From contig JALAGF010006284.1 in NCBI GenBank assembly GCA_030167865.1, positions 47,780 through 67,779 of the forward strand: a DNA stretch of 20,000 nt, in the 5' to 3' direction. The position numbers and the translations under genes are program-made. The first letter of the stretch is position 1. Every line of letters starts with the position of its first letter. The notes below the pieces were generated by a model. It saw nothing but the letters and a program-made list of their open reading frames with translations. It was not told where the DNA came from and did no database searches. This DNA is from Craspedostauros australis (lineage: Eukaryota). Of this stretch, positions 2,607-19,788 are shown piece by piece.

Positions 2607-2977
2607 CGTTTCGTTTGGTTTTGAGTCGCAATGGGATGCGCAGGTGGTGTATCGCCCAAGAGTGCTCTGCTCTGTTCTGCTCTGTTATTCTATTGTTCCA
2701 TTGGAAGTCGAATGTCCTGTCCAAGTGGCCGCAATGTGAGTGTTGTGAACCGTTGTGCGGCTCTTTGGTGCGTTGGGTGGTGGCGGCCATTGGCACTGTG
2801 GCCGTTGACATGACTCGGACAAACAAGAGCGATGGTCATTGGTCGTGACTCAAACGCGAAAGACCAAACGTGAAAGAAAAGAATCCTCGCAACACAGAAC
2901 AAGGATTCTCTCTCTTTGTGCCGGAGAGGAGGCGAACTTCGCGCACCAACGGAACAACCAGAGATCAGATCGTTCTG

Positions 2978-3012
2978 CATGGATCCATTCCATGGATCCG
3001 TTCCATGAATCC
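2978..3012 (+). repeat. 13-bp tandem repeat (CATGGATCCRTTC x ~2.7) in the divergent intergenic region
   Basis: catggatccattc catggatccgttc catgaatcc. Confidence 0.7.
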
Positions 3013-3066
3013 ACAAAAGGAACAACACGTCCCAACACACAAACGGAATTGTCGCAACACCACCAT

Positions 3067-3100
3067 CACATTCACACCCACATTCACACCCACATTCACA
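3067..3100 (+). repeat. 12-bp tandem repeat (CACATTCACACC x ~3) in the putative 5' leader
   Basis: cacattcacacc cacattcacacc cacattcaca, directly upstream of ATG 3128. Confidence 0.75.
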
Positions 3101-3127
3101 TCTCTGAACGGTGAACACAGCGCCAAC

Positions 3128-4573
3128 ATGGGATCCACTCCTTCCGCGCCCGAACCTCCCGCATCCCGCGCACTGTCTCCAACAGCGGCCTCGCCGGATG
3201 CAAGTTCTGCCACCGAACAGGCCGTCCCTCTCGCAGAAATCGAAGTCGCCGATTCCAGGTTCATCGCCTACTGCATGGATTGCCGCGCCCTCGACGACGC
3301 CTTCGTCCTCCAGAAGATCCTCAAGGCCCAGCACCCCGATGCCGCGCATGTGCCCGTCGTGGCACTGAAGCGCCAGCCCGACGTCGTCTGCAAATGGTCC
3401 GAAGATGGAGAACCGGAGAATTCGGTGCTGCCGGCCATCAAGGCGACGATCTTGGAGCAGCCGGGTGGCGCCATTCTGGCTGTCGGCGTCGTGCGCTACT
3501 TTGGAGACCAGCTGCTGGGTGTCACGTGCGGGCGGCTGTCGCAATGCTACGCTGCGGTGACGCGGTTGGCCTTGCACCGCCAGTTCCATGGCGCGACGAC
3601 GCCGATGCACTACGATCTCACGCAGTCCGCCATCACGAAGGATCTCTACGGAATCGCCGCTGGCGATGCGGAGCTCATCCTCAACGTCATCGAGGAGACC
3701 GCGCCCGACACCAGGTTCCTGCTGGTCTCCAAGCTCATCCACGAGCTCAACTTCGATGGCTTCCAGGGTGCCAAGGGAGAGGAGCTGCCGCGGTTGCAGA
3801 ACCTGCAAGCTACCTCGCTCGAGAACGGCGCCATCATTCCCGTGTACCGATACCCCGGCAACTACCAAGGCGACGAGTGGGATACGTTCGATTGGAGCCC
3901 CACTACGAAGAGGGTCAAGGCGCAAGTCGAGAAGCGATTGCAACCGCTCGTGCATCAGACCATGAACCACTGCGTCACCAACTTTTATCGTGATGGCAAG
4001 GATCACATCGCACACCACAGCGACAAGGATCTGGATCTGAATCATGCCAGCGTCATCGTCAGCGTCAGTCTCGGCGACGAGCGCATCCTGGAATTGCGAC
4101 GCCGTGCCGAACCGCGCGACATCACCCGCATCCGCCTGCCGCACGGCTCCATGCTCGTGATGGGACCCAAGACGAACAAGCGCTTCACGCACTCCATCCT
4201 GGCCAACGAGGACAGCACGATGCCGCGCATCAGCCTCACCCTGCGCAATGTCACCACCTACATGGATCTGCGGACGGGCCGGCTGTTCGGGCAAGGTGTC
4301 GAGACCAAGGACGTCGCCGACATTCGGAACATGGAGCTGGTCGAGAACGGTTGCTTCCTTGCCGGGTTCTGCGCGCTGTCCTCCATCCTTCTGTCCAAAC
4401 GGCGCGCACGCGGACGCGCATCGGATGTGCTGGTGGCAGGCGGGGTCACGGGGGCCTTCTTCTGCGGCATGCACTTCTATCGCAACCTGATTGAACGCGT
4501 GCGACGTTCGAAGCAGGAACGCGCCGCACGCGATTTCTTCTCCAAGGCCTCCACGACCGGGACCAAATACTAG
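3128..4573 (+). CDS. IMPACT/YigZ (UPF0029) domain fused to an AlkB-like 2OG-Fe(II) oxygenase, with C-terminal hydrophobic segments
   Basis: The ORF track starts at 2870 (GTG), but ATG 3128 (gccaacATG, after a CA-rich leader) is more likely, giving 481 aa. IMPACT motifs: 'EVADSRFIAY', 'SEDGEP', 'VVRYFG..LLG'. AlkB motifs: 'NFYRDGKDHIAHHSD' (HxD 4016-4024), 'SVSLG', 'LPHGSMLVM', 'HSI' (His 4190), 'RISLTLR'. Confidence 0.85.
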   Translation: MGSTPSAPEPPASRALSPTAASPDASSATEQAVPLAEIEVADSRFIAYCMDCRALDDAFVLQKILKAQHPDAAHVPVVALKRQPDVVCKWSEDGEPENSVLPAIKATILEQPGGAILAVGVVRYFGDQLLGVTCGRLSQCYAAVTRLALHRQFHGATTPMHYDLTQSAITKDLYGIAAGDAELILNVIEETAPDTRFLLVSKLIHELNFDGFQGAKGEELPRLQNLQATSLENGAIIPVYRYPGNYQGDEWDTFDWSPTTKRVKAQVEKRLQPLVHQTMNHCVTNFYRDGKDHIAHHSDKDLDLNHASVIVSVSLGDERILELRRRAEPRDITRIRLPHGSMLVMGPKTNKRFTHSILANEDSTMPRISLTLRNVTTYMDLRTGRLFGQGVETKDVADIRNMELVENGCFLAGFCALSSILLSKRRARGRASDVLVAGGVTGAFFCGMHFYRNLIERVRRSKQERAARDFFSKASTTGTKY

Positions 4574-5405: not shown

Positions 5406-5511
5406 GACACCAGCAATCATCATAGCACAGTTGGGTTCCATTGTGAAGACGCAGAGCAGAGCAGAGCATCGCACAACATATCGCAGCATAGCATAGCACA
5501 TTCAAGACAAA

Positions 5512-6645
5512 ATGGCGCCAGTCGGAAGACCCATCAAATCGATAACGCGGAATGCAGGATCCCGGGCAAACAGGGTCCAACCAACGCTTCCCTTCGGAAT
5601 CAAACTCAGCACTTGCCTTGGCATTGCTGGCCTTGTCATCTTGCGCGCTGTGTACCTGCGACCGGTGCCAGTCTACGATTCCTTTGATTGGGCCGTTGAC
5701 ACTGCGAGCGGTGGTAGCATGAGAGGCAAACATTTCATGCTGTCAGATACCGACTTCGCTTCGATTGCCACGAGCAGCAGCGCGACGTCCACCAAGAAGG
5801 AGGATCTCTGCCTGCAGCGATCCTTCCAGCGCCTTTGCAGCGCATACGACACGGACAGCATCATGGTCGATTGCATGCAATCACCGCGTGAGTTCTTTCT
5901 GGAGGAGTACAGCGGCTACAAACCATCCGAGGAGGAGCTGGAGGCACGCAAAATCATGAAGACCGTCAGCGCGGTGTCCATCGGAGCCGGTCCCAAAGCG
6001 AGCGGTCTGTGCAATCATGCCACCATAAATTCCAAAACACTGTGCACGGACCGACCGCAGCTCGATCTCTTCTACTTCCAAAGCTGGCTCAGTCTCACCC
6101 ACTCGGCGAACAACGGTCTCCGCGTCGTCTTCGCGGAGCACGTGCTGGAGCATTTCGATCCCATCCAGGTCGAGCGCGTTGCCGCAGCCGCCTTCGCCAT
6201 GATGCGACCAGGAGGAACATTTCGTGTTGCCGTGCCGGATGGATACAAGCCCAGTCCCAGCTACCAGCAGTACATCCGCGCCGGTGGCACGAGCTCGGGG
6301 CATGGTCAGAAGCACATGGTGGCGTGGACCGTGGACAATCTGTGCCCCATCTTCCAATCGGTCGGCTTCCAAATCGTGCAGAGGGAGCATTACGACTACA
6401 AGGGCGATTTCTTCTCCGCCCCCGATGCCTACGACAAGGATGAAACCATCGGAAAGATCAAACGATCCCAGAAACACGACAAGCGCAACGCGGAGGACTT
6501 TGAGGTCAAGACCCAAAATCACATGGGTAGATTGTCAAGGGATGATCTCAAGGAGGGCGAGAACGTCTACACCAGCCTGTGGTTCGATGCCGTCAAGCCA
6601 AAGGACTGTACAGCGCACATGGCGGGGTTGGAACAGAGTACGTAG
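5512..6645 (+). CDS. Membrane-anchored class I SAM-dependent methyltransferase (Methyltransf_11-like)
   Basis: 377-aa ORF with acaaaATG context and an N-terminal TM segment (LSTCLGIAGLVILRAVYL). Motif I-like 'VSIGAG', plus 'VFAEHVLEHF' and 'MRPGGTFRVAVPD', typical of class I methyltransferases. Confidence 0.8.
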   Translation: MAPVGRPIKSITRNAGSRANRVQPTLPFGIKLSTCLGIAGLVILRAVYLRPVPVYDSFDWAVDTASGGSMRGKHFMLSDTDFASIATSSSATSTKKEDLCLQRSFQRLCSAYDTDSIMVDCMQSPREFFLEEYSGYKPSEEELEARKIMKTVSAVSIGAGPKASGLCNHATINSKTLCTDRPQLDLFYFQSWLSLTHSANNGLRVVFAEHVLEHFDPIQVERVAAAAFAMMRPGGTFRVAVPDGYKPSPSYQQYIRAGGTSSGHGQKHMVAWTVDNLCPIFQSVGFQIVQREHYDYKGDFFSAPDAYDKDETIGKIKRSQKHDKRNAEDFEVKTQNHMGRLSRDDLKEGENVYTSLWFDAVKPKDCTAHMAGLEQST

Positions 6646-6799: not shown

Positions 6800-8767
6800 T
6801 CATCGCTCCGCGTTGGTCGCTTCAGGACACATCTCCTCGTACGGCACATTCACTTGCGTCAGCGGGCAGCCGAAGATCAGCTCTTCCATGCGATGATGCG
6901 CCCGATGGTAGCCCATCGAAACCTCCCAACCGCGCTTGGCGATGTCTTGCCGTTCCTCGTCGTGCTCCAAATAGTACTCGATGTGGCGGGGCAATTCTTG
7001 CAAGTCTCGAAAGAACACGAGGCTCGTCCCATTCTGCAATCCTTTCGGCAGCGACAGCATGACATCCGATAGGACCATCGCACCGGCCGACAGCGCTTCC
7101 ATCAACCGATAATGATCTTCCCAATTGTCGCGCCCCGTCACGATCACGATCTTGGCCGACAACGTGGCTTCCGCGTAGGCCGACGAGGCCTCATTGCGTC
7201 CCTGTCGACCAGGCGCGCCGGACACCGCGGTGATGGTCTGGATCTTGGTGCCCTTGCCAGGCAGCACCGCGCCCTGCAAACGCTTCACGACGATCGTGAC
7301 GGCGTTGCGGTAGTGGCCGTAAGCGCTCTTCGTCATGGGCCAGAAATGCGCCACGTCGACGGCATCGCGGATGAGGCTGTAGGGCGGTGGCAGACACACG
7401 TCGGCCCGTATCTGTCGGCCATTGTAGATCGCGTTCCAATGCGCGGCGGGGTCGTCGGTGCCGTGGAACAGGTCCTGCAGGGACTGCGTTTCTCCCACCG
7501 CCGATACGCGGGAGCTAAGGATCTGCTTGATCTGCTGGACATGGTCCGTGCGGACGGTGTACGATGTGTGCTTCGTCGGTCCTCCCAACGTGTTCGCGTT
7601 CGTTGGCATCTCCACGTAACCAAGGTTGAGACGCTTCTTCTTTTCATCGTAGGAGCGGTGTCGAATGATCATCCTCGTGGCAGTTCGGATATGCGCTTTG
7701 TCCTGAATGCCCTGTTGGATGGACCGGTCCGTGATGTTGTCATGCACCAATATTTTGTTGTAAAAATTGCCGGCGTAGAACCGATCCGAGTAGTCCACCA
7801 GCAGCAGCTTCCAAGGCGAATCAACCCCGTCGAACCACAGCTGCTGCAGGAAGGTGTTGTTCGCAAACACCTTTTGGCTGCGTGCGCGGATGACATCCAG
7901 GACCCACAGCTCGACGTGCGTTTCGGCATGCACCGTACAGTTGTTGGGATGATCTCTGTGCTTGTGGATGATGGGTTTGGCCCGCTTCCTCGTGGTCGGT
8001 TCCTCCGTCGTGTTGATCCAGTTCTTCGTGACTAGATTGCACATCTGCACCATCTCCATGAAATTGGACATTTTGATGCCATCGTACATGACGTGGATGC
8101 TCTCGCCCTGCATGGGCAACGCGGTACCGAATGCAACTCGCAGAGGTCGGTACTGCGTGATGCCCGGCGCCGCGATCGGTCCTTCCAGTCGGAAGGCCGA
8201 GATGTTGAAGAATGGCTCCGTTTTGTGGACGCCGCATTTCATAAGTTCCGCAACTGTTTTTGAGGTTGCCGCCAATGGTTTCGTGGTCGTTGATTTCGTG
8301 GTGGGCTTTATGGCAACAGGTTCGATCCTGGCATGGATCGATTGCGCTGATTGCACTGTTTGCGCCGACGTCGCTGTTGAATTGTCGACGCTGCTCAACA
8401 TGGCAATGGGAGATTTTGGATCATCGAGGGGCGGCTCGAAACCAGCAGAGATGTTGCTGGAATCATCCACAGACAGCTGCAGGGTCGTGTAGACTACTCG
8501 AATGGTGATGATGAAGCTGGCTGCGAAGACTATCAGGAACAGCACCGGCTTGCCCTTGGAGGCAGGCCTGCCTTCTTGAGTCGACTTCTGTCGCTGCATC
8601 TGCTTCTGCTTGTGCCACTGCCTTGGCTTGTGCGATTTGTCGTGCCTCTGATGCTCTGCTTCCGACGCAGCAAGCTTCTCCATGCCTCGTTGGCTGCCAT
8701 TGTCCATGCTCGTATCTCCATCTGCATTGGCATCGGCCAATGCCGGACGGCCGCTGGAAACACTCAT
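6800..8767 (-). CDS. Type II membrane GT-B glycosyltransferase (Glyco_trans_1_2 / YkvP-CgeB-like C-terminal domain)
   Basis: The ORF is open to 9010 (GTG). The start is uncertain; ATG 8767 was chosen and other in-frame ATGs exist. TM helix PVLFLIVFAASFIITIRVVY, S/T-rich stem, and C-terminal 'YRLMEALSAGAMVLSD...LVFFRDLQELPRHIEYYLEHDEERQDIAKRG' matching the Glyco_trans_1_2 pattern. Confidence 0.8.
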   Translation of the reverse strand: MSVSSGRPALADANADGDTSMDNGSQRGMEKLAASEAEHQRHDKSHKPRQWHKQKQMQRQKSTQEGRPASKGKPVLFLIVFAASFIITIRVVYTTLQLSVDDSSNISAGFEPPLDDPKSPIAMLSSVDNSTATSAQTVQSAQSIHARIEPVAIKPTTKSTTTKPLAATSKTVAELMKCGVHKTEPFFNISAFRLEGPIAAPGITQYRPLRVAFGTALPMQGESIHVMYDGIKMSNFMEMVQMCNLVTKNWINTTEEPTTRKRAKPIIHKHRDHPNNCTVHAETHVELWVLDVIRARSQKVFANNTFLQQLWFDGVDSPWKLLLVDYSDRFYAGNFYNKILVHDNITDRSIQQGIQDKAHIRTATRMIIRHRSYDEKKKRLNLGYVEMPTNANTLGGPTKHTSYTVRTDHVQQIKQILSSRVSAVGETQSLQDLFHGTDDPAAHWNAIYNGRQIRADVCLPPPYSLIRDAVDVAHFWPMTKSAYGHYRNAVTIVVKRLQGAVLPGKGTKIQTITAVSGAPGRQGRNEASSAYAEATLSAKIVIVTGRDNWEDHYRLMEALSAGAMVLSDVMLSLPKGLQNGTSLVFFRDLQELPRHIEYYLEHDEERQDIAKRGWEVSMGYHRAHHRMEELIFGCPLTQVNVPYEEMCPEATNAER

Positions 8768-11164
8768 GGGAAGATAGATGGTCGCCTGTTTCTTTTCTTG
8801 TTCTTCTGCTGCTGCTCTGCTGTTTCTTCCACTACGACTCTCCAGTACTTCATTGACTTCCAAGCAACATCGACATGGGGTATCACCAGCACTTGGATTG
8901 TCACCGCCTGTTCTATTGCCTTGCGAAACAGTTGCGAGTGCATCCGCAAAGTGTGGGAGAGATGGTCTTGGCATCCGCAGGTTGTATGTCGTCTTTTCTC
9001 CCTTGTGCACAACACAACAACTTCACAACAACAAGAGGCCCGTTGAACGTCACGGTACCAACAACGCTGGTTTCGACTACCAAGATACCGTATCATGTCA
9101 GTGTCGATACCATCAACGAACAAACGGACAACACTCGAAGCGAACTCAACGAATTCGCTGGACAAGAAATGACGCACAGCAATGACATCTTCGGCCTCCC
9201 CAGCGATCGGAAAATTCCGCCACCCAAGATACGGAAATACTTGACAATCGGCGACGTTCTGTGGCGGAAACGGACGAAGGGAGGCTCGCCAGCCAAGCAT
9301 TTTCCCGACGCTGGGGAGTATCAGATCCATGTTCTGAACCAATGATGCGTTCTGATTGGTGCAGGAGTGCTCATATCTTTTTTCTGATGGAGACATGGTT
9401 TTGATGTGTGCTGTCTCGTGACACGTGGTACAATTCGCTCGTATGTGAGGGTTTAGTGGAATGAGTACTGGATCGCGATCACAAGTCATTGCTCTTCTTC
9501 TCTTTTGCGCGCGGATGCGCGATGTTGCCGACACCATCCTCACCAATGATGGATGGTATCCCTCTCCAATCCACACTCGTGCATCCACGCACAGTTCCTC
9601 ACGACGAACACGCTCGACGCCGCAAGAAACAACGGCGGCATTGGCGAACTTCAAACGACCCGTTGGCGAAGTACCAGAAGCGCCGTAGAAACCCAACTCC
9701 GAAACATTGACAAAACTTGACCCTCGCTCCCTCCATAATTTCATTTTTGCCACCAACCAATCCAAACGAGACGCTGTCGTTCGGTTTGGTCGGGTTGGCT
9801 GACACGTACGAGGTTTACTTTTTGCCTCACGAAACACAACAGCAAAGCAACGCAAAAACAACGACACACAAAACAACACACCAGAACAAGCGCGTTGTCG
9901 TACCGTGACGGTTCGAACCTCGCACCACCACCCAATCAATCAATCAATCACCACACAAGCCAATCGCAGAACAAAAAAGGAACCTGGAATCTCGATTCCT
10001 CCAAATTAGTCTCACGCAAGCCAAAGGTAAGCAAATTGTGGCACGATGCTTCGAAGGACTTCGCAAGTCCCGTTTCAGACTTGCGAGGATTCCGTCCTTG
10101 CCTGTTGTTGTCCGCCGCACCGGTTGTCCCTCACCCCTGACGAAGGCGAAACACAGGCCAGCCACCACCACACCACGATCAACAGAAGCCCTTTCACCAC
10201 CACCAACAACAACAACAGGCACAGGAAATCAAAGATCGACCATGGCGGGTTAGTCGTGCCTCCACCACCGCAACCACGAAAATCCGAAACCCGCCCACCT
10301 CCTCTCAACCATCCACCAAAAACGCCTGAAAAAAGGGACCCATCAAACAACCTCCCAACCCAACCAATACGATGCAACAACCAAAACATGCACATGCACA
10401 CACACATACACACACTGGATCATACCTGGCAACACCCGACGATGACGAGGTGCGTGATTGGTATCAGCTCCAGATAATTCCTCTCTGAGGAATTGATGAA
10501 TGGGTGCATGGTTGGGCCCATCTTCTCCCTTCGACGCGGATCATGACATCCTCGAACCCGCTGACTCTTCGAACCGCACCTCTTCGAGAAGACATGGTTT
10601 GGTCGGGTTACATGCCGGCGTCTGGTGGCTTGGTCAGTGGTGTGGATGCTCGACGGACTTCTTGGCCGTGATGGTGCATGAGTGAGGGTGGTGGTCTGCT
10701 TGTGTGTGTGTTGATGTTCTGATGCTGTGATGCTCTCTCTCTGTTTCTCTTCGTGTTTCGGCTTTGTGTTGCTTTGGCGTCTTGTTCGCATTTCTTTGTC
10801 ATTTTCTGTCTGTTTTTGGCTTTGTCGGTCTTGTTGTTCTCATTGGGTCCAATGCTGTGTGTAGCCTCCAGTACATTCCCCACGGACATCGCACTTCTCG
10901 TCGAGACGGACAGACCATTCAATTCCTCCAGCCACAAGCGTGACACAAACAGTCGCACCTTTGATTATCCACGTTTGGACGGGACATCAACCCAAACCAT
11001 AACAACAACACCAACAGGACTCGTGGAATCTTTTATGTCGCATCAACACGTCCCATTCCAGAACCACACTAACCCATTCTTCCATTGTTCCACTTGCATC
11101 CCCTTCTCTGCAACTTCATTGCCATCATGACGACAGACCATCCAACAGCAACGGCAACGCCAAC

Positions 11165-14100
11165 ATGACTGGCGATCAAGGGAACGGCGGCAACGATGGG
11201 CCCCATGCACCACAGTCAGCAGCGCCATCATCGTCCCCACATAAACAGTCTCAAGTGCTGGAACAGACGCTCGCATCCCCTGCGCTGGGTCGCAAGCGGC
11301 CCCGGATCTGCCGTCTCGTGTCCTACGACAACATCGTCTCCCCACTTCCGATGCAATATCCTAGCTGCGAGAAGAATGTCATCAAGGTGCCAGGACTTCA
11401 AACCCACATCGAGGACGCTGCGATGGTCGCCGCCCATGTGGATGAAAACAGAAAACCCAACTCGAAAGTGCTGCTGCCACCACTGTCAGCATCGATGAAC
11501 ACGCAACCATCGTCCGCTGACCCGCTACGCGATCGTCAGCTCCTGAGCCTTCATCTCACAGCAATCCGGCTGGAGGTTGAGCTGCAGCCAATGCGATCAA
11601 TCCTTTCAAAGCTGATGATGCATCAGGCACACAACCGCAAGGGGATCTTCAACTCTCCTGTCGATCCTGCAGCCCTCAAGCTCCCAGACTACTTACGCAT
11701 CATCGCACAACCCATGGATCTCGGAACCGTCAAACGCAGGCTCCATGCAGTCGCGTACAAATGCAGAAGCGACGTGGCGGCGGACGTTCGACTCACATTC
11801 CATAACGCCATGAAGTACAACCCACCGCACAACGCCGTCCACAACGCTGCCAAGCAGCTCCTGGTAATCTTTGAAAACGCCTACCAAACGCTGGATCCCA
11901 CACCCAGCGACCCACCAATCGCGCAGGCGGTTGCCGTAGCTGTCCCAATTGCCACCGTAGCTCCTTCCACAAGCAGTATCCCAGCATCTGCGCAGAGCCT
12001 ACCGACGGCAACAGCTCAATGCATGCCGGTTGCAGCCACCGCGCCTCCCACTGCATCGCAAGCTCTACCTGTACTGTCAGCACTGTCCCCGCGTGCAAGG
12101 CCAGCCGGGCGACGCACGTCCTTCCACCATAGCGAACTACCATCTGCCCCGACGCTCAAGCGCAAGCGATCCTGTTCGAGCTCCCTCTCGATCAGTGCCC
12201 ACAATCATCAACAGCACCGCTGCGACGAATGCCATGGACGCGAATGCGCCATGTGTCTGCAAGGGTGCCTGCTCCACGAACCGAGTTTGGTCATCTGCCA
12301 AGGACAGGCCTGCGCCGGAGCGAGACTTCGCAAGGGTGCCCAATACCACGTGACAAGAGACGGCACCCAGCAATACTGCCAACGATGCTACGCCAACCTC
12401 CCTCCGACGCTGCCACGCAATCCCAACGACCCCGTCATCTACAAGCAACATCTCCTCAAGAGAAAGAACGACGAGGAGGTGGCGGAGAAATGGATCACAT
12501 GTAGCAAGTGCGACATCGGCATGCATCAGATCTGCGCCATGTTCAACCCTGCCGTCCATTCGAGGGACAACTTCTTCTGTCCGCCGTGCAGAAACATCTC
12601 AGCAACGCCGAGCGTCAGCCACACAAACCAGAGCGAGGACGCCATCATTCCCGAGCACGCGCTGTACACGTACATGAGTGGGTATGACGCCCCCGTCCCC
12701 ATGTCGAGCATCGTATCTGACAACAGCACCACTCCCGGCGATGGCATGCCCACCGCAGACAGCCTCCCCAAGTGCGCCATCTCGTCTTTCATCGAAGACA
12801 AGGTGCGGTCCAAGGTGCAGGCCATTCCCAACGCTGGCGCAACCATCACCGTTCGCATCGTCTCTGACTGCGACCGATCATTCGTGGTCCCGGACGCCAT
12901 CCGTAGACATTTTCGCATGAATGCGGATGGTGCCGCACACCATGGAGGCCGCGTTGTGAAACCACCGAAGAGAGTGAATTACAACCAAAAAGCGATCATG
13001 CTGTTCCAGAGAATCGACGGCCACGACGTCTCCGTCTTCTCCATGTACGTCCAGGAATACGAAGGCAATGACGAATACGAGGTTGAGAACGAACAAACAG
13101 GCCAGCGCTGCACGACGGACAACCACACTGTCAAAGCACCCCACGCAAAGAGGGTGTACATCGCGTACCTTGATTCTGTGGAGCATTTCCGCCCCCGCAA
13201 GTGCCGGACGACCGTGTACCACGAGATCATCGTCGCGTACCTTGCAACAGCAAGAGAGCAAGGATTCGAGACGGCGCAGATTTGGGCGTGCCCACCATCG
13301 AAGGGGAGTTCCTTCGTTTTTTGGAATCATCCAGCATCGCAACGGACGCCCAACCAAGATCGGCTGACTGCGTGGTACAACTCCGTGCTCAGCCGTGGCG
13401 TTGATTGCGGGGTCATCACGGACATCAAGAGTCTGTACGAAAGCGAATTCCAAACTCCTCTGAACCAAGTCAAGCAGGCCTATGCACACCATGCAGCAGC
13501 TGCAGCAGCAGACGGATCTGCATCTGGCGTGTCTTTGCACGATGGACGCATGCTGGCCCCGCCACTCCTGGACGGCGATTTTTGGCTGGAGGAGGCTGTG
13601 CGAATTCACACGGCGAGTCTGCTTCGGTACCAGAAGAGCAAGTCAACGCATGAGGTCTGTGTGTGGAATGTCACCCCCACCAACTTCCAAGATCTGGATC
13701 CATGCCCCGCCGTTCAGATTGCCTCGCTGATCCGAGAGCGCATCATCACGCACCCATCTGCGGCGGCCTTCCGCAAACCGGTGAATGCGGCTGCTCTCAA
13801 GCTGAAGGATTATCACAAGATCGTCACCAAGCCCATGGACCTTGCAACCATCTACTCGAAGTGCACTATCGGAGAATACTACACACTTCGGGAGGTCATC
13901 GATGACGTGGAGTTGATGGTCGCCAATGCAAAGCGTTTCAACCCGCCTGGACACTTTGTGCACCTCAAGGCCACAGAAGTCTTGGACATCTTCTACCAAG
14001 AGCTCGATGCCCTGTGCATGCACTGGCCAACTGAGCAAGCATCATCCAGCACAGACCAGCACCAACAGGGACAGGGACAAGGACAGGCGCAAGTGCAGCC

Positions 14101-15385
14101 GTCCCGAAGCATGTTTACCTCGATGAATATGGCATTGGATCACATCATTGCCGTGCATGGGCCAAAGCAGGCATCGGCTACAGTCATGACGCCCCATGCG
14201 ACAACCAGTGTTGTCATTGAGGATGATCCATCGATCGATTGCTCCAAGTCTCTCGGTGGATCATCCATGGACACATCGACATTTTCCGCGCAGTCCATCA
14301 AGGACTCCAACTCTCACGCCAACACTCAGTCTGAACGTGAACTGTCGCCCGATGCGCAATCCCAACTCCACTCCGGTACCATCTACAGCACCAGCAGCAG
14401 CCAAGGTTGCCAACACTCCTCATCAGTGACAGTCGTATCAACCGGAGTCCTTCCGCCCAAACAGCAGCAGCAGCCCAAGAAGCTGGATTTGCTTACGGGC
14501 GGACCTGAGGCCGTCCATGAGCGCATGTGCGGCGACGACACATTTCTGATGAAGAAATCAAGCTCGCCATCCAGCAAGAACAACCCTGGCCGCACCTCTG
14601 CCAAGACCTCAAGCAAGAAATCCGGCGGCAAGAAACGCCGTGGCTCGACTTGCTGCGCAACATCATCCAACACGACTCCGTCAGCATCCGGAGGTGCATC
14701 CGTCACGACCGCGTCAACAGGCTCTGGCATGTCATCGGCTGCGAACAAAAAACGTCGACAATCATGGCTGGGTGAAGAAGTGGCAGACTGCGTGCGCCGG
14801 ATGCGTCTGACCCTGTTCACTTGCTCGTTGGGTGGTCCATCCAAACCTACTGACGCAAATACCTCAACCACCACGACATCGCCGACACCAACAACGAACA
14901 TGTCAGCGGTCGAGGCAAAGCAGGCCGAGTATCAACAGTACGCAGCCTCTTTCCGCACGAAGACAACAACAGCAGCAACAACAACGCCGTCGTCAACAGC
15001 ACCACCTACCTTCCGATCAAAGATTGCCGACGCCAGACACACTCTGTTGGAATTTTCCCAATACCGGCACTTCGAGTTCGACACTTTGCGACATGCAAAG
15101 TACAGCACGAAGATGCTGGTCTACTACCTCCAGAATGACGACGCTCCAGGCATCGTCCCGCATTGCACGAGCTGCAAAAAGACGATCCAAAAGGTGCGAT
15201 GGCACCGAACCAAGAAGCACGCAGAACGACAACGGCAACGATCATCGTCAGTCGGGAGCAAGAAGGCTGCGCAGACGCCAGTCACCACCGTCCCGTGGAC
15301 ACCGGAAGAATTGTGCGGATCATGTCATGAAATCCGCAACGACAATGATGACTTCATTCCGGTTCCGGTCTCCATCAAACCATGA
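11165..15385 (+). CDS. CBP/p300-family (KAT3) histone acetyltransferase: bromodomain, RING/PHD, HAT, second bromodomain, degenerate ZZ
   Basis: 1406-aa uninterrupted ORF. Bromodomain 1 'IFNSPVDP..LKLPDY..II.QPMDLGTV...NAMKYN'; PHD 'WITCSKC..MHQIC...FFCPPC'; HAT motifs 'MYVQEY', 'RVYIAYLDSV', 'IWACPP', 'RLTAWY', 'GDFW', 'FEFDTLRHAKYST'; bromodomain 2 'FRKPVN...DYHKIVTKPMDL...NAKRFN'. Confidence 0.93.
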   Translation: MTGDQGNGGNDGPHAPQSAAPSSSPHKQSQVLEQTLASPALGRKRPRICRLVSYDNIVSPLPMQYPSCEKNVIKVPGLQTHIEDAAMVAAHVDENRKPNSKVLLPPLSASMNTQPSSADPLRDRQLLSLHLTAIRLEVELQPMRSILSKLMMHQAHNRKGIFNSPVDPAALKLPDYLRIIAQPMDLGTVKRRLHAVAYKCRSDVAADVRLTFHNAMKYNPPHNAVHNAAKQLLVIFENAYQTLDPTPSDPPIAQAVAVAVPIATVAPSTSSIPASAQSLPTATAQCMPVAATAPPTASQALPVLSALSPRARPAGRRTSFHHSELPSAPTLKRKRSCSSSLSISAHNHQQHRCDECHGRECAMCLQGCLLHEPSLVICQGQACAGARLRKGAQYHVTRDGTQQYCQRCYANLPPTLPRNPNDPVIYKQHLLKRKNDEEVAEKWITCSKCDIGMHQICAMFNPAVHSRDNFFCPPCRNISATPSVSHTNQSEDAIIPEHALYTYMSGYDAPVPMSSIVSDNSTTPGDGMPTADSLPKCAISSFIEDKVRSKVQAIPNAGATITVRIVSDCDRSFVVPDAIRRHFRMNADGAAHHGGRVVKPPKRVNYNQKAIMLFQRIDGHDVSVFSMYVQEYEGNDEYEVENEQTGQRCTTDNHTVKAPHAKRVYIAYLDSVEHFRPRKCRTTVYHEIIVAYLATAREQGFETAQIWACPPSKGSSFVFWNHPASQRTPNQDRLTAWYNSVLSRGVDCGVITDIKSLYESEFQTPLNQVKQAYAHHAAAAAADGSASGVSLHDGRMLAPPLLDGDFWLEEAVRIHTASLLRYQKSKSTHEVCVWNVTPTNFQDLDPCPAVQIASLIRERIITHPSAAAFRKPVNAAALKLKDYHKIVTKPMDLATIYSKCTIGEYYTLREVIDDVELMVANAKRFNPPGHFVHLKATEVLDIFYQELDALCMHWPTEQASSSTDQHQQGQGQGQAQVQPSRSMFTSMNMALDHIIAVHGPKQASATVMTPHATTSVVIEDDPSIDCSKSLGGSSMDTSTFSAQSIKDSNSHANTQSERELSPDAQSQLHSGTIYSTSSSQGCQHSSSVTVVSTGVLPPKQQQQPKKLDLLTGGPEAVHERMCGDDTFLMKKSSSPSSKNNPGRTSAKTSSKKSGGKKRRGSTCCATSSNTTPSASGGASVTTASTGSGMSSAANKKRRQSWLGEEVADCVRRMRLTLFTCSLGGPSKPTDANTSTTTTSPTPTTNMSAVEAKQAEYQQYAASFRTKTTTAATTTPSSTAPPTFRSKIADARHTLLEFSQYRHFEFDTLRHAKYSTKMLVYYLQNDDAPGIVPHCTSCKKTIQKVRWHRTKKHAERQRQRSSSVGSKKAAQTPVTTVPWTPEELCGSCHEIRNDNDDFIPVPVSIKP

Positions 15386-17774: not shown

Positions 17775-18090
17775 GGTGGCAGCAGAGATGGAGCAACCTC
17801 CTGCTGTTGTTGTTATGCTGTTGTTGTGATGTTGTGTCTCTGTTTGGATTCGATTGAATGTTGTGCGAAGAAGGATGACGACTGACGAAACGAAAAGAAC
17901 GTTGATGGGTCTTTTGATCTGGGACACCCAACAAATTGTCCATTTCATGAGTTTTTCTGGGTCAACTACTCATTACGGGACTCGATAATGGAGGATTATT
18001 TCTGAGAAATTGTTCTCGAAAGGAAAAATGGATATTTTTGCTTCTTTGCAATTGTCATCTGAGATCCGAAATTGTGCCTGAAAATGAGTT

Positions 18091-18240
18091 GGACAATGGC
18101 AGACAATGTCAGACAAAATTTGACCGAATTAGACAAAATGAGACAAAGTGAGACAAAACCAGACAGAATCAGAAAGCGTCAGACAAAGTCAGACAGAAGT
18201 AGACAAAATCAGACAAAGCCGGACAAAGCGAGACTCAGGC
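18091..18240 (+). repeat. Degenerate 10-bp tandem minisatellite, ~15 units, consensus AGACAAARTC
   Basis: ggacaatggc agacaatgtc agacaaaatt tgaccgaatt agacaaaatg agacaaagtg agacaaaacc agacagaatc agaaagcgtc agacaaagtc agacagaagt agacaaaatc agacaaagcc ggacaaagcg agactcaggc; the 10-nt register is kept throughout with no indels. Confidence 0.9.
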
Positions 18241-18604
18241 TGATGACGGAAATTAGAGTGGGCGATGAATCAGTTGCTCTCTCCAGACTATGGACCTGCG
18301 ACTTTGCTCTGATATGAGTGATATTGTATTACAAATAGCAATTCCCACAGTACAATATAACCTCATCGAGATATTTTTGGAGGGGCAACATGCGAATTNC
18401 CCCCCCTCGGAAATTGAAACACAATCGAGTTTCACGTCGCAGTCCCGGCAATAGACCTTCCACATGTCGAAACGAAATAAACGCTCAATCATATCTCTTC
18501 ATGTACAATAGCGTTTCGTCATATTTGTCATACTGATGATGGATGCATTGGCATGCTCGCAAAGAAGAAGCTAGCATTCTAGTGTGAAGGATACATGGAG
18601 CAAT

Positions 18605-19788
18605 AGAGAGTGAAAGCAATGTTGGATATGCCTACAAACTTCATCTGTGATATTTGCGTGCAATTAGCAGCGACTCCCTTCATAGTCCAGCCAAGGAAGC
18701 TTTGCTCATTGCCCATTTCATCCGATGCATCATACATGGTGTGCTCCTGGATTCTCTGAGGATCGGTGCCCTCTGATATGACCAGGAACTTGGACCAACA
18801 CGCATTTTGCATCCTTTGGAGCTCCTGATTGCCATANNNNNNNNNNNNNNNNNNNNNNNNNNNNNNNNNNNNNNCATAGCAATAGTTCTGTGTAGACTGC
18901 ATGAGGAGCTTCTATTGGACAGCAAACTGCTGATCCATCTCCATGATATGGTGATCAAGAAGTCTCTGCCATCGATATTGGCAAGAGAGACTTGAACAAG
19001 CCAGGAAGTAGCAGGGACGAAATGCTTGCGCCTCTGTTATTGGACTTCTGGTAGTGGCAAAGTTGCGACAGAAGAGATGGCAACAAAAATCTCACAATAC
19101 TAGGCTATGAAGAGGAGAAAGAGAGATATGCATTGCATGCAACTCAGGACACACCCATTAATGATCCTACCNNNNNNNNNNNNNNNNNNNNNNNNNNNNN
19201 NNNNNNNNNNNNNNNNNNNNNAGAGAGTGAAAGCAATGTTGGATATGCCTGCAAACGTCATCTATGATATTTGCGTGCAATTAGCAGTGACTCCCTTCAT
19301 AGTCCAGCCAAGGAAGCTTTGCTCATTGCCCATTTCATCCGATGCATCATACATGGTGTGTTCCTGGATTCTCTGAGGATCGGTGCCCTCTGATATGACC
19401 AGGAACTTGGACCAACACGCATTTTGCATCCTTTGGAGCTCCTGATTGCCATANNNNNNNNNNNNNNNNNNNNNNNNNNNNNNNNNNNNNNCATAGCAAT
19501 AGTTCTGTGTAGACTGCATGAGGAGCTTCTATTGGACAGCAAACTGCTGATCCATCTCCATGATATGGTGATCAAGAAGTCTCTGCCATTGATATTGGCA
19601 AGAGAGACTTGAACAAGTCAGGAAGTAGCAGGGACGAAGTGCTTGCGCCTCTGTTATTGGACTTCTGGTAGTGGCAAAGTTGCGACAGAAGAGATGGCAA
19701 CAACAATCTCACAATACTAGGCTATGAAGAGGAGAAAGAGAGATATGCATTGCATGCAACTCAGGACACACCCATTAATGATCCTACC
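18605..19788. repeat. Direct duplication of a 567-bp unit (18605-19171 and 19222-19788) separated by a 50-N gap
   Basis: Offset is 617. By eye there are 9 substitutions in 529 called bases, and both copies carry a 38-N run at the same position (18837-18874 and 19454-19491). Confidence 0.95.

Follow-up and report, generated by a model that had tools for sequence, protein, structure and literature searches.

How are the reading and the writing of acetylation coupled, and can active chromatin be maintained by an acetyltransferase that transcription factors do not recruit? Both questions are raised by a gene of Craspedostauros australis located in a 20,000-nucleotide stretch of DNA (hereafter, the window). 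The central switch of p300/CBP enzymes is the autoinhibitory loop, a disordered basic segment that is released by autoacetylation. An earlier reading of the window (the sequence-only reading) had placed a complete second bromodomain at the position of this loop, where it would split the acetyltransferase (HAT) domain in two.

The gene lies in a stop-free frame of 1460 codons on the forward strand (11003-15385), whose earliest in-frame ATG is at 11165. Its domains follow in the order bromodomain, RING/PHD, HAT N-terminal part, bromodomain 2, linker with a Lys/Arg-rich tract, HAT C-terminal part and degenerate ZZ finger (Table 1). The Bromodomain-RING-PHD arrangement ahead of the HAT was recognized by Pfam, by match to p300 chains and by a family profile. 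The LDGDFW motif occupies positions 13568-13585 and NAKRFN positions 13925-13942, while WLGEEV starts at 14765.

Table 1. Features of the TAZ-less two-bromodomain p300/CBP paralog (positions in the window)
Feature	Position	Strand	Remarks
CDS, TAZ-less two-bromodomain p300/CBP paralog	11165..15385	+	1406 aa from first in-frame ATG; start inferred; homologs start near there
Bromodomain 1, usual position	11570..11896	+	Pocket Tyr and Asn retained
RING/PHD zinc module	12215..12592	+	p300-chain match, weak Pfam PHD, conserved Cys/His
HAT N-terminal part	12755..13630	+	Contains YLDS, IWACPP, L1 loop, AWY, LDGDFW helix
Inserted bromodomain 2	13697..14029	+	ZA-loop Tyr 13811, pocket Asn 13940; ZA loop basic in diatoms
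Short conserved segment past bromodomain 2	14114..14140	+	Conservation; ordered in model, pLDDT 77-92
Ser/Gln-rich disordered linker, length variable	14141..14482	+	
Two-helix element within loop, diatom-conserved	14483..14551	+	Confident fold, pLDDT 93-94
Lys/Arg-rich tract	14552..14641	+	Found in most diatoms and Parmales, in few other members
HAT C-terminal part	14747..15148	+	KRRQSWLGEEV helix and strand, DARH helix, FDTLRHAKYS
Degenerate ZZ finger	15149..15382	+	Two CxxC pairs remain (15164, 15314); no TAZ2 after

The Pfam profile PF08214 (HAT_KAT11) matched the HAT N-terminal part only (residues 655-800, E 4e-22) and left the C-terminal part unmatched; the split match that had been predicted on either side of bromodomain 2 was thus not obtained with this profile. 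The C-terminal part was retrieved by phmmer with p300 chains (residues 1323-1403, i-E 8e-4) and by the family profile (i-E 1.4e-21), and in the predicted model residues 580-1382 align as a single body with p300 1285-1664. All three agree with the earlier assignment of the downstream segment to the HAT C-terminal subdomain. The HAT of the window protein's predicted model overlays human p300 with Z 32 and 2.7 Å over 308 residues, and that of a non-diatom family member with Z 39.7 and 2.5 Å over 326 residues. As far as models can tell, and two independent ones concur, the HAT halves reassemble into the p300 fold. Foldseek by itself aligned ca. 300 columns at 6-7 Å, because it cannot skip the insert.

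The Asp (YLDS, 13172), Trp (IWACPP, 13283) and Tyr (AWY, 13376) that had been pointed out as catalytic equivalents are each present in 120/120 close homologs. They align with D1399, W1436 and Y1467 of p300. Between the halves, the Trp-to-Trp interval measures 395 residues, just as estimated from the letters, and is near the top of the range found in the family (251-419, median 318). Judged by sequence and model, the window protein is a p300/CBP-type (KAT3/KAT11) HAT with both subdomains, split by an insert at the autoinhibitory-loop position. Acetyltransferase activity of this TAZ-less two-bromodomain paralog would be expected.

Two stretches of the frame were matched by the bromodomain profile PF00439, the better one at residues 912-991; on the insert alone the profile gave E 4.9e-19 (68.5 bits versus a cut-off of 21.7). 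Modelled residues 899-1009 superimpose on solved bromodomains with Z 15.1-15.5 and rmsd 1.2-2.1 Å over 103-109 residues. Profile and overlay both bear out a full second bromodomain with its pocket Asn kept. The pocket consists of ZA-loop Tyr937, BC-loop Phe979 and Asn980. Tyr and Asn are present in 202/202 aligned domains, in all of which the BC-loop aromatic is Phe or Tyr, and the Asn was found in 255/256 whole-insert matches (251 by pattern and four by eye among the five misses, the last being a gene model without the segment). By fold and pocket residues bromodomain 2 is thus of the putative acetyl-lysine-competent type. The tether between the GDFW Trp and the FxxPV motif of bromodomain 2 is short and varies within a narrow range (41-74 residues, n=271), and the site at which the second bromodomain appears to have been gained is the N-terminal root of the loop.

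Alternatively, the insert might be an artefact (intron or misassembly) or a neutral passenger, a duplicate that is tolerated and put to no use. A whole insert was found in 256 of the 379 HAT-bearing matches and a partial one in 33 more, and in the 256 proteins it is in frame. Transcript-derived orthologs marked complete (P0054, P0265 and P0326) also carry it. Quick trees place the 289 insert-bearing matches in one clade that includes names of diatoms, Parmales, pelagophytes, chrysophytes, Pinguiococcus and brown algae, and its inner shape matches the accepted relationships of ochrophyte groups. Two gene models would fit an artefact or a passenger: P0244 (chrysophyte), nested in the clade, has no insert, and P0308 (pelagophyte) misses a part of it. 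Together with the invariant pocket, the in-frame inserts, the transcripts and the shape of the clade refute this explanation at the level of the family, and overall we find it hardly credible. No RNA run was listed as holding the sequence; the one run with a small share of it yielded a single contig (14961-15700) and nothing spanning the insert.

The architecture is therefore not unique to the C. australis genome, and the guess that other stramenopiles share it proved right across ochrophyte groups. One match is labelled Telonema subtile, given which the insert form may be older than ochrophytes. Since the gene was found in Ectocarpus and in the cultured diatoms Cylindrotheca, Nitzschia and Ditylum, it is experimentally tractable.

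With a TAZ profile, a TAZ finger was detected in 0/289 insert-bearing matches and in 57/83 matches without the insert. Pfam likewise detected no TAZ in the window protein, which places it outside the canonical CREBBP/EP300 co-activator architecture. Bromodomains also bind non-histone acetyl-lysines, and bromodomain 2 could read an acetylated non-histone partner and so replace TAZ in its recruiting role. The lack of TAZ throughout the insert clade and the invariant pocket would suit such a function. However, 26 relatives have neither TAZ nor the insert, from which it follows that TAZ loss is independent of the insert, and none of our results points to a non-histone partner; we consider this explanation highly unlikely. 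A search with a TAZ-less relative that has no insert, from this sister group, returned no named oomycete, and none was found among our other matches. The accessible part of one survey (PMC4030286) lists oomycete TAZ-less KAT11 types C and D as Bromodomain, [PHD], KAT11, with one bromodomain. Like the insert form, these are TAZ-less stramenopile p300 paralogs with an N-terminal bromodomain.

Two ordinary TAZ-bearing p300 genes (G000:C5545) are present in the same genome besides the insert paralog. They share the Bromodomain-RING-PHD-HAT core with it; unlike the insert form, they have TAZ1, a full ZZ, TAZ2 and a Lys-rich loop of 53-60 residues, are ca. 50% identical to it over a 96-residue core and form a separate clade. 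We regard the insert form as a third, ancient p300/CBP paralog of ochrophyte algae, devoid of the TAZ fingers on which transcription factors dock and with an extra bromodomain at the loop root. The human p300/CBP core (PDB 6GYR, 4BHW, 5LKT and 3BIY) has the domain order, HAT fold (Z 32-40), catalytic Asp/Trp/Tyr equivalents, loop position and pocket-intact first bromodomain in common with it. The insert form differs by the second bromodomain inside the loop, by the lack of TAZ1, KIX and TAZ2, by a two-CxxC ZZ (in diatoms), by replacement of the L1 Asp-Asp and by the lack of the BC basic patch. No Pfam ZZ match was found in the window protein; the ZZ remnant has two CxxC pairs in 148/150 diatom/Parmales members and three in 76/87 others. 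The L1 loop carries an acidic Asp-Asp pair in 10/10 TAZ-bearing proteins scored, but in 0/115 non-diatom and at most 2/154 diatom insert-bearing proteins. The change of D1628 to His was considered as a distinguishing trait and dropped, since this acid is missing from the ordinary diatom paralogs too.

The canonical short Lys-rich autoinhibitory loop is absent from the window protein, the 395-residue interval with a folded domain standing in its place. Past the insert, eight Lys are found within 30 residues. When a Lys tract was scored as at least six Lys within 30 residues after bromodomain 2, it was present in 81% of 150 diatom/Parmales proteins and in 8% of 85 other members, whose loop is acidic (median net charge -8). 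In diatoms Arg makes up much of the tract, and four columns dominated by Arg are among its best-conserved basic positions; Lys1185 is kept in 108/121 and Lys1249 in 105/121 diatom rows. The tract could be a remnant of the autoinhibitory loop, a nuclear import signal, or both. Most members have probably lost the classical inhibition by a basic pseudosubstrate loop or retain it only weakly.

The sequence-only reading had offered two functions for a built-in reader: a latch, in which it captures the acetylated loop of the enzyme itself, or coupling to neighbouring acetyl marks. As a latch, bromodomain 2 would capture acetylated lysines of the loop of its own or a partner molecule, keeping the enzyme on or shielding the marks from deacetylases. 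There is a precedent, as the CBP bromodomain binds its own loop acetylated at K1596 (accessible part of PMC12547938). The Lys content of the window protein and of most diatom/Parmales members would also agree with a latch, for which one conserved Lys, such as Lys1185 or Lys1249, would suffice. However, the pocket is equally invariant in the other members, where the tract is rare and the loop net acidic, and the Arg-dominated columns of diatoms look nuclear-import-like. The invariance of the pocket is not matched by the Lys tract, which suggests an external ligand. Diatoms and Parmales, including the window protein, keep a Lys/Arg tract, and therefore self-binding is possible there; overall the latch seems to us unlikely. 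Of the two functions offered, coupling to neighbouring marks fits best.

Another view, which we regard as doubtful, is that bromodomain 2 is a folded stand-in for the disordered loop, a docked reader in place of a brake released by autoacetylation. It would pack against the substrate groove, covering or flanking it, and hold the enzyme down until an acetyl-lysine fills its pocket, gating the groove so that it opens only on an acetyl mark. Gated in this way, the enzyme would be self-sufficient, independent of transcription factors, and would copy acetylation solely to sites that already carry it, which would make it a candidate for maintaining active chromatin in diatoms and brown algae. Bromodomain 2 starts 41-74 residues past the helix with the equivalent of E1505, a residue of the p300 substrate pocket (accessible part of PMC9843983), both predicted models imply a fixed position, and a basic loop that could do this is missing from most non-diatom members. 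On the other hand, such gating does not obviously require an invariant pocket, and the accessible p300/CBP literature offered no precedent. The pTM is 0.79 in both predicted models, and a rough bound on this value makes a freely floating bromodomain 2 unlikely, suggesting indirectly that it is docked on the HAT; under the most generous assumptions the non-diatom model reaches 0.788 even with bromodomain 2 floating. In the same model bromodomain 1 is off its human p300 position (13-15 Å versus 3 Å without bromodomain 1). A complex prediction that took bromodomain 2 and each HAT half as an individual chain scored 0.00, with alignments unused and controls that did not fold, and speaks neither for nor against docking.

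The reading we prefer, with about an even chance of being correct, is that the TAZ-less paralog reads acetylated chromatin with its two bromodomains and writes more acetylation with its HAT. Acetyl-lysines of histone tails would be bound by both bromodomains, which would thereby anchor the intact HAT to nucleosomes that are already acetylated; there the HAT would add further acetylation with no transcription factor needed. At the sequence level, the architecture, its confinement to one clade, the lack of TAZ, the invariant pocket and catalytic residues and the altered L1 loop are established; acetyltransferase activity, histone ligands, docking of bromodomain 2 on the HAT, bivalent binding and independence of transcription factors are presumed. 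In animal p300 the bromodomain pocket and the BC basic patch are both needed to read and write on nucleosomes (accessible part of PMC10352329). The patch is missing from both bromodomains of the insert form (median 0-1 K/R versus 4), so that the second reader could supply a second anchor; ordinary diatom paralogs likewise lack the patch, yet have one bromodomain only. An invariant reader at the autoinhibitory-loop site combined with the absence of TAZ amounts to a natural experiment on the two questions posed at the outset.

In plant HAC proteins a folded ZZ module, i.e., a zinc finger, interrupts the HAT C-terminal region one loop further on; our plant and green-algal matches have TAZ and no bromodomain past the HAT core. 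In the accessible literature on p300/CBP and stramenopile HATs we did not find the insert described, the available supplement text of PMC5499015 contained no match, and the accessible surveys of stramenopile CBP proteins mention a single, N-terminal bromodomain. The Phaeodactylum proteins PtiHAC1-3 (2426, 1728 and 1603 aa according to the accessible part of PMC5112689) are longer than most diatom insert forms.

BET proteins and TAF1 also carry two pocket-intact bromodomains per chain, and bromodomain 2 overlays BET-type domains with Z ca. 15; their readers are in tandem, whereas those of the insert form flank and interrupt a p300 HAT. A single origin of bromodomain 2 was not rejected (p-AU 0.74). 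In a tree of 151 bromodomains (113 columns) it grouped weakly with multi-bromodomain proteins, and by identity and profile scores it is nearest to bromodomain 1 of the TAZ-less lineage (30/37 nearest neighbours).

A frame scan of the window revealed 1460 stop-free codons coding for a TAZ-less p300/CBP paralog (hereafter, the window protein; coordinates of this and other features are collected in the table). Pfam detected two bromodomain stretches and a HAT_KAT11 domain at residues 655-800. The sequence-only reading had proposed that the HAT domain is split by a second bromodomain at the position of the autoinhibitory loop, and this interval, searched alone, matched the bromodomain family with an E value of 4.9e-19. 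Solved p300/CBP chains align to the window protein in four ordered pieces (215-298, 421-534, 584-825 and 1323-1403), and the distance between the Trp of GDFW and that of WLGEEV is 395 residues. The predicted split HAT match was not obtained, Pfam returning a single HAT_KAT11 match to the N-part; the downstream segment was recognised as the HAT C-part, as had been proposed, by the family profile (i-E 1.4e-21 against p300) and by structural alignment.

Residues 580-1460 were modelled with AlphaFold2 (106 alignment rows, pLDDT 74.8, pTM 0.79); in this model the HAT halves reassemble into one body on human p300 1285-1664 (Z 32, 2.7 A over 308 residues). Residues 899-1009 superpose on solved bromodomains (Z 15, 1.2-2.1 A), and two further short segments within the insert folded with confidence. 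The model of a full-length non-diatom member, P0288 (m3a07d3cae04a; 88 rows, pTM 0.79), agrees, its HAT matching p300 with Z 39.7 and 2.5 A over 326 residues. PHD and HAT together fit p300 at ~3 A over 420-432 residues, and the rmsd becomes 13-15 A when bromodomain 1 is included; this placement of bromodomain 1, unlike that in human p300, may be genuine or may reflect an error of the model. A rough calculation with three assumed error sets gave pTM values of 0.63-0.75 and 0.69-0.79 for a floating bromodomain 2 versus the modelled 0.79. Since a pTM of 0.79 thus appears hard to reach if bromodomain 2 floats, the models give a hint, not proof, that it is docked on the HAT. That bromodomain 2 gates the active site as an acetyl-dependent lid is a rather unlikely reading.

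A search with the HAT-bromodomain junction retrieved 277 matches, the best 120 of which contained the whole insert (118) or part of it (2). Our pooled set comprised 403 distinct proteins, the query and its cluster members left out, and was drawn mostly with insert-bearing queries (three of four seeds), so that the following counts are not frequencies: 379 proteins had a HAT core, with the insert whole in 256, partial in 33, absent in 83 and unclear in 7. The suggestion that other stramenopiles may share this architecture was borne out, with carriers in Cylindrotheca, Nitzschia, Grammatophora, Ditylum, Proboscia, Leptocylindrus, Triparma, a pelagophyte (CCMP2097), Chrysophaeum, Aureococcus, Mallomonas, Pinguiococcus, Chrysoparadoxa, Phaeothamnion and Ectocarpus. 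A carrier labelled Telonema subtile may be genuine, making the origin older than ochrophytes, or prey-derived. Splicing does not remove the insert in the family, since the transcript-derived orthologs P0054, P0265 and P0326, marked complete, contain it. The feature is real and conserved, and an artefact is scarcely credible.

In a quick HAT tree of 72 chosen rows, from whose alignment the insert columns had been removed, the 40 rows with an insert all fell into one branch (SH-aLRT 96), with one insert-less gene model nested inside; the protein labelled Telonema subtile belongs to a deep branch of insert carriers (P0310, P0160 and P0309). The sub-branches, which we take to correspond to ochrophyte groups, were diatoms with Parmales (97), chrysophytes (96), brown algae and kin (100) and pelagophytes (100), as expected under vertical descent. 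The window protein groups with pennate diatoms. Of the TAZ-less relatives without the insert (P0213, P0218, P0233, P0235, P0337 and kin), several carry a long Lys-rich loop immediately after the GDFW helix and two carry PF13325; these relatives possibly represent the pre-insertion state.

The insert form is a separate paralog from two ordinary p300 genes of the same genome, both with TAZ, bromodomain, RING/PHD, HAT with a Lys-rich loop of 53-60 residues, ZZ and TAZ2. TAZ fingers were found in none of the 289 insert-bearing matches and in 57 of the 83 matches without the insert. The ZZ region has two CxxC pairs in 148/150 diatom/Parmales members and three in 76/87 others. Equivalents of the catalytic Asp, Trp and Tyr are present in 120/120 close homologs each; the latter two presumably correspond to p300 W1436 and Y1467. 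The Asp is numbered D1399 in the accessible part of PMC9843983. The L1-loop Asp-Asp (D1444-D1445, anchored on the available text of PMC9828244) is kept in all ten TAZ-bearing proteins scored; insert-bearing proteins mostly have Asn-Ser (126/154 diatom) or, elsewhere, Asp-Asn or Asn-Asn (99/115). We infer a role for this pair in binding the autoinhibitory loop. The window protein is a p300-type HAT family member outside the canonical TAZ-bearing co-activator architecture.

The ZA-loop Tyr and pocket Asn are conserved in 202/202 aligned bromodomain 2 domains. Among whole-insert matches the Asn was found in 255 of 256 (251 by pattern, four by eye), the exception being an Aureococcus gene model without that segment. 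The tether to the HAT keeps to a narrow range of 41-74 residues (n=271), and the downstream linker varies widely in length. For 30/37 bromodomain 2 domains the nearest relative was bromodomain 1 from this TAZ-less lineage, which suggests internal duplication; the bromodomain tree did not recover this duplication, and a single origin was not rejected.

According to the accessible portion of PMC10352329, human p300 recognises acetylated H4 and acetylates H2B and H3 through its pocket and a BC basic patch on DNA. The insert clade has this patch in neither bromodomain, and ordinary diatom paralogs lack it as well; in diatoms the ZA loop of bromodomain 2 is basic (median 5 K/R). As the best explanation, with about an even chance of being right, the two bromodomains would form a bivalent chromatin reader and the HAT its writer. 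The sequence-only reading had suggested that bromodomain 2 could be a latch on the enzyme's own acetylated loop or could couple activity to neighbouring acetyl marks. The available text of PMC12547938 offers a real precedent for the latch: the basic loop of human p300 (1532-1564) obstructs the site as long as it has not been acetylated in trans, and K1596ac in the loop can serve as a ligand for the CBP bromodomain. The window protein has the Lys tract, two lysines of which are conserved in 105-108/121 diatom rows. Of 150 diatom/Parmales proteins, 81% have at least six Lys in the 30 residues that follow bromodomain 2. The share is only 8% among 85 (of 87) other members, in which the median net charge of the loop is -8 and yet the pocket is equally invariant. 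These other members speak against the latch as the general function, and the tract of the window protein speaks for it; we consider the latch rather unlikely. Recognition of a non-histone partner by bromodomain 2 is distinctly improbable. In the non-diatom P0152, P0156, P0159 and P0164 the loop following bromodomain 2 is rich in Ser, Arg and Asp and repeats RxxS-like words, so that it may be under phosphorylation control; non-diatom members often have small Lys patches in the next loop.

The open-access literature searched, which excluded subscription papers, figures and some supplements, does not describe a bromodomain within the HAT of a p300 protein. In the parts available, PMC5112689 gives HACs of oomycetes and diatoms "a" bromodomain, PMC4030286 lists one in TAZ-less oomycete types, versus two in the window protein, and PMC10421102, PMC4751559 and bioRxiv 10.1101/364604 add nothing on architecture. 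The arrangement is apparently undescribed, though possibly noticed before, since public databases annotate both Pfam families on insert-form proteins and literature coverage was partial.

The 13-codon frame upstream of the HAT gene could be a regulatory uORF or a sign of a different true start. The tandem array and the duplicate are probably repeat or assembly structure.

Features of the window and of other contigs of the same genome
Feature	Position	Strand	Remark
Frame of 568 codons	978-2684	-	no Pfam match
UPF0029 (IMPACT/YigZ-type) domain	2849-4573	+	fused to AlkB-type 2OG-Fe(II) oxygenase
Methyltransferase	5497-6645	+	weak match
Glyco_trans_1_2 protein	6800-9022	-	
HAT gene frame	11003-15385	+	first in-frame ATG at 11165
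Frame of 13 codons (possible uORF)	11127-11168	+	stop overlaps HAT gene ATG
GDFW Trp	13583	+	
WLGEEV Trp	14765	+	
Peptidase C69 gene	15729-17558	-	converges on HAT gene
Tandem array	18080-18244		10-base unit, AGACA-containing
Duplicate	18605-19521		98%, 617-base spacing, interrupted by N runs
Ordinary p300 genes (L004, L005)	G000:C5545:31000-56900	opposite	~18 kb apart, converging; one with two N-terminal TAZ fingers
Single frame of 1489 codons	G000:C1599:10866-14474		six bromodomain matches
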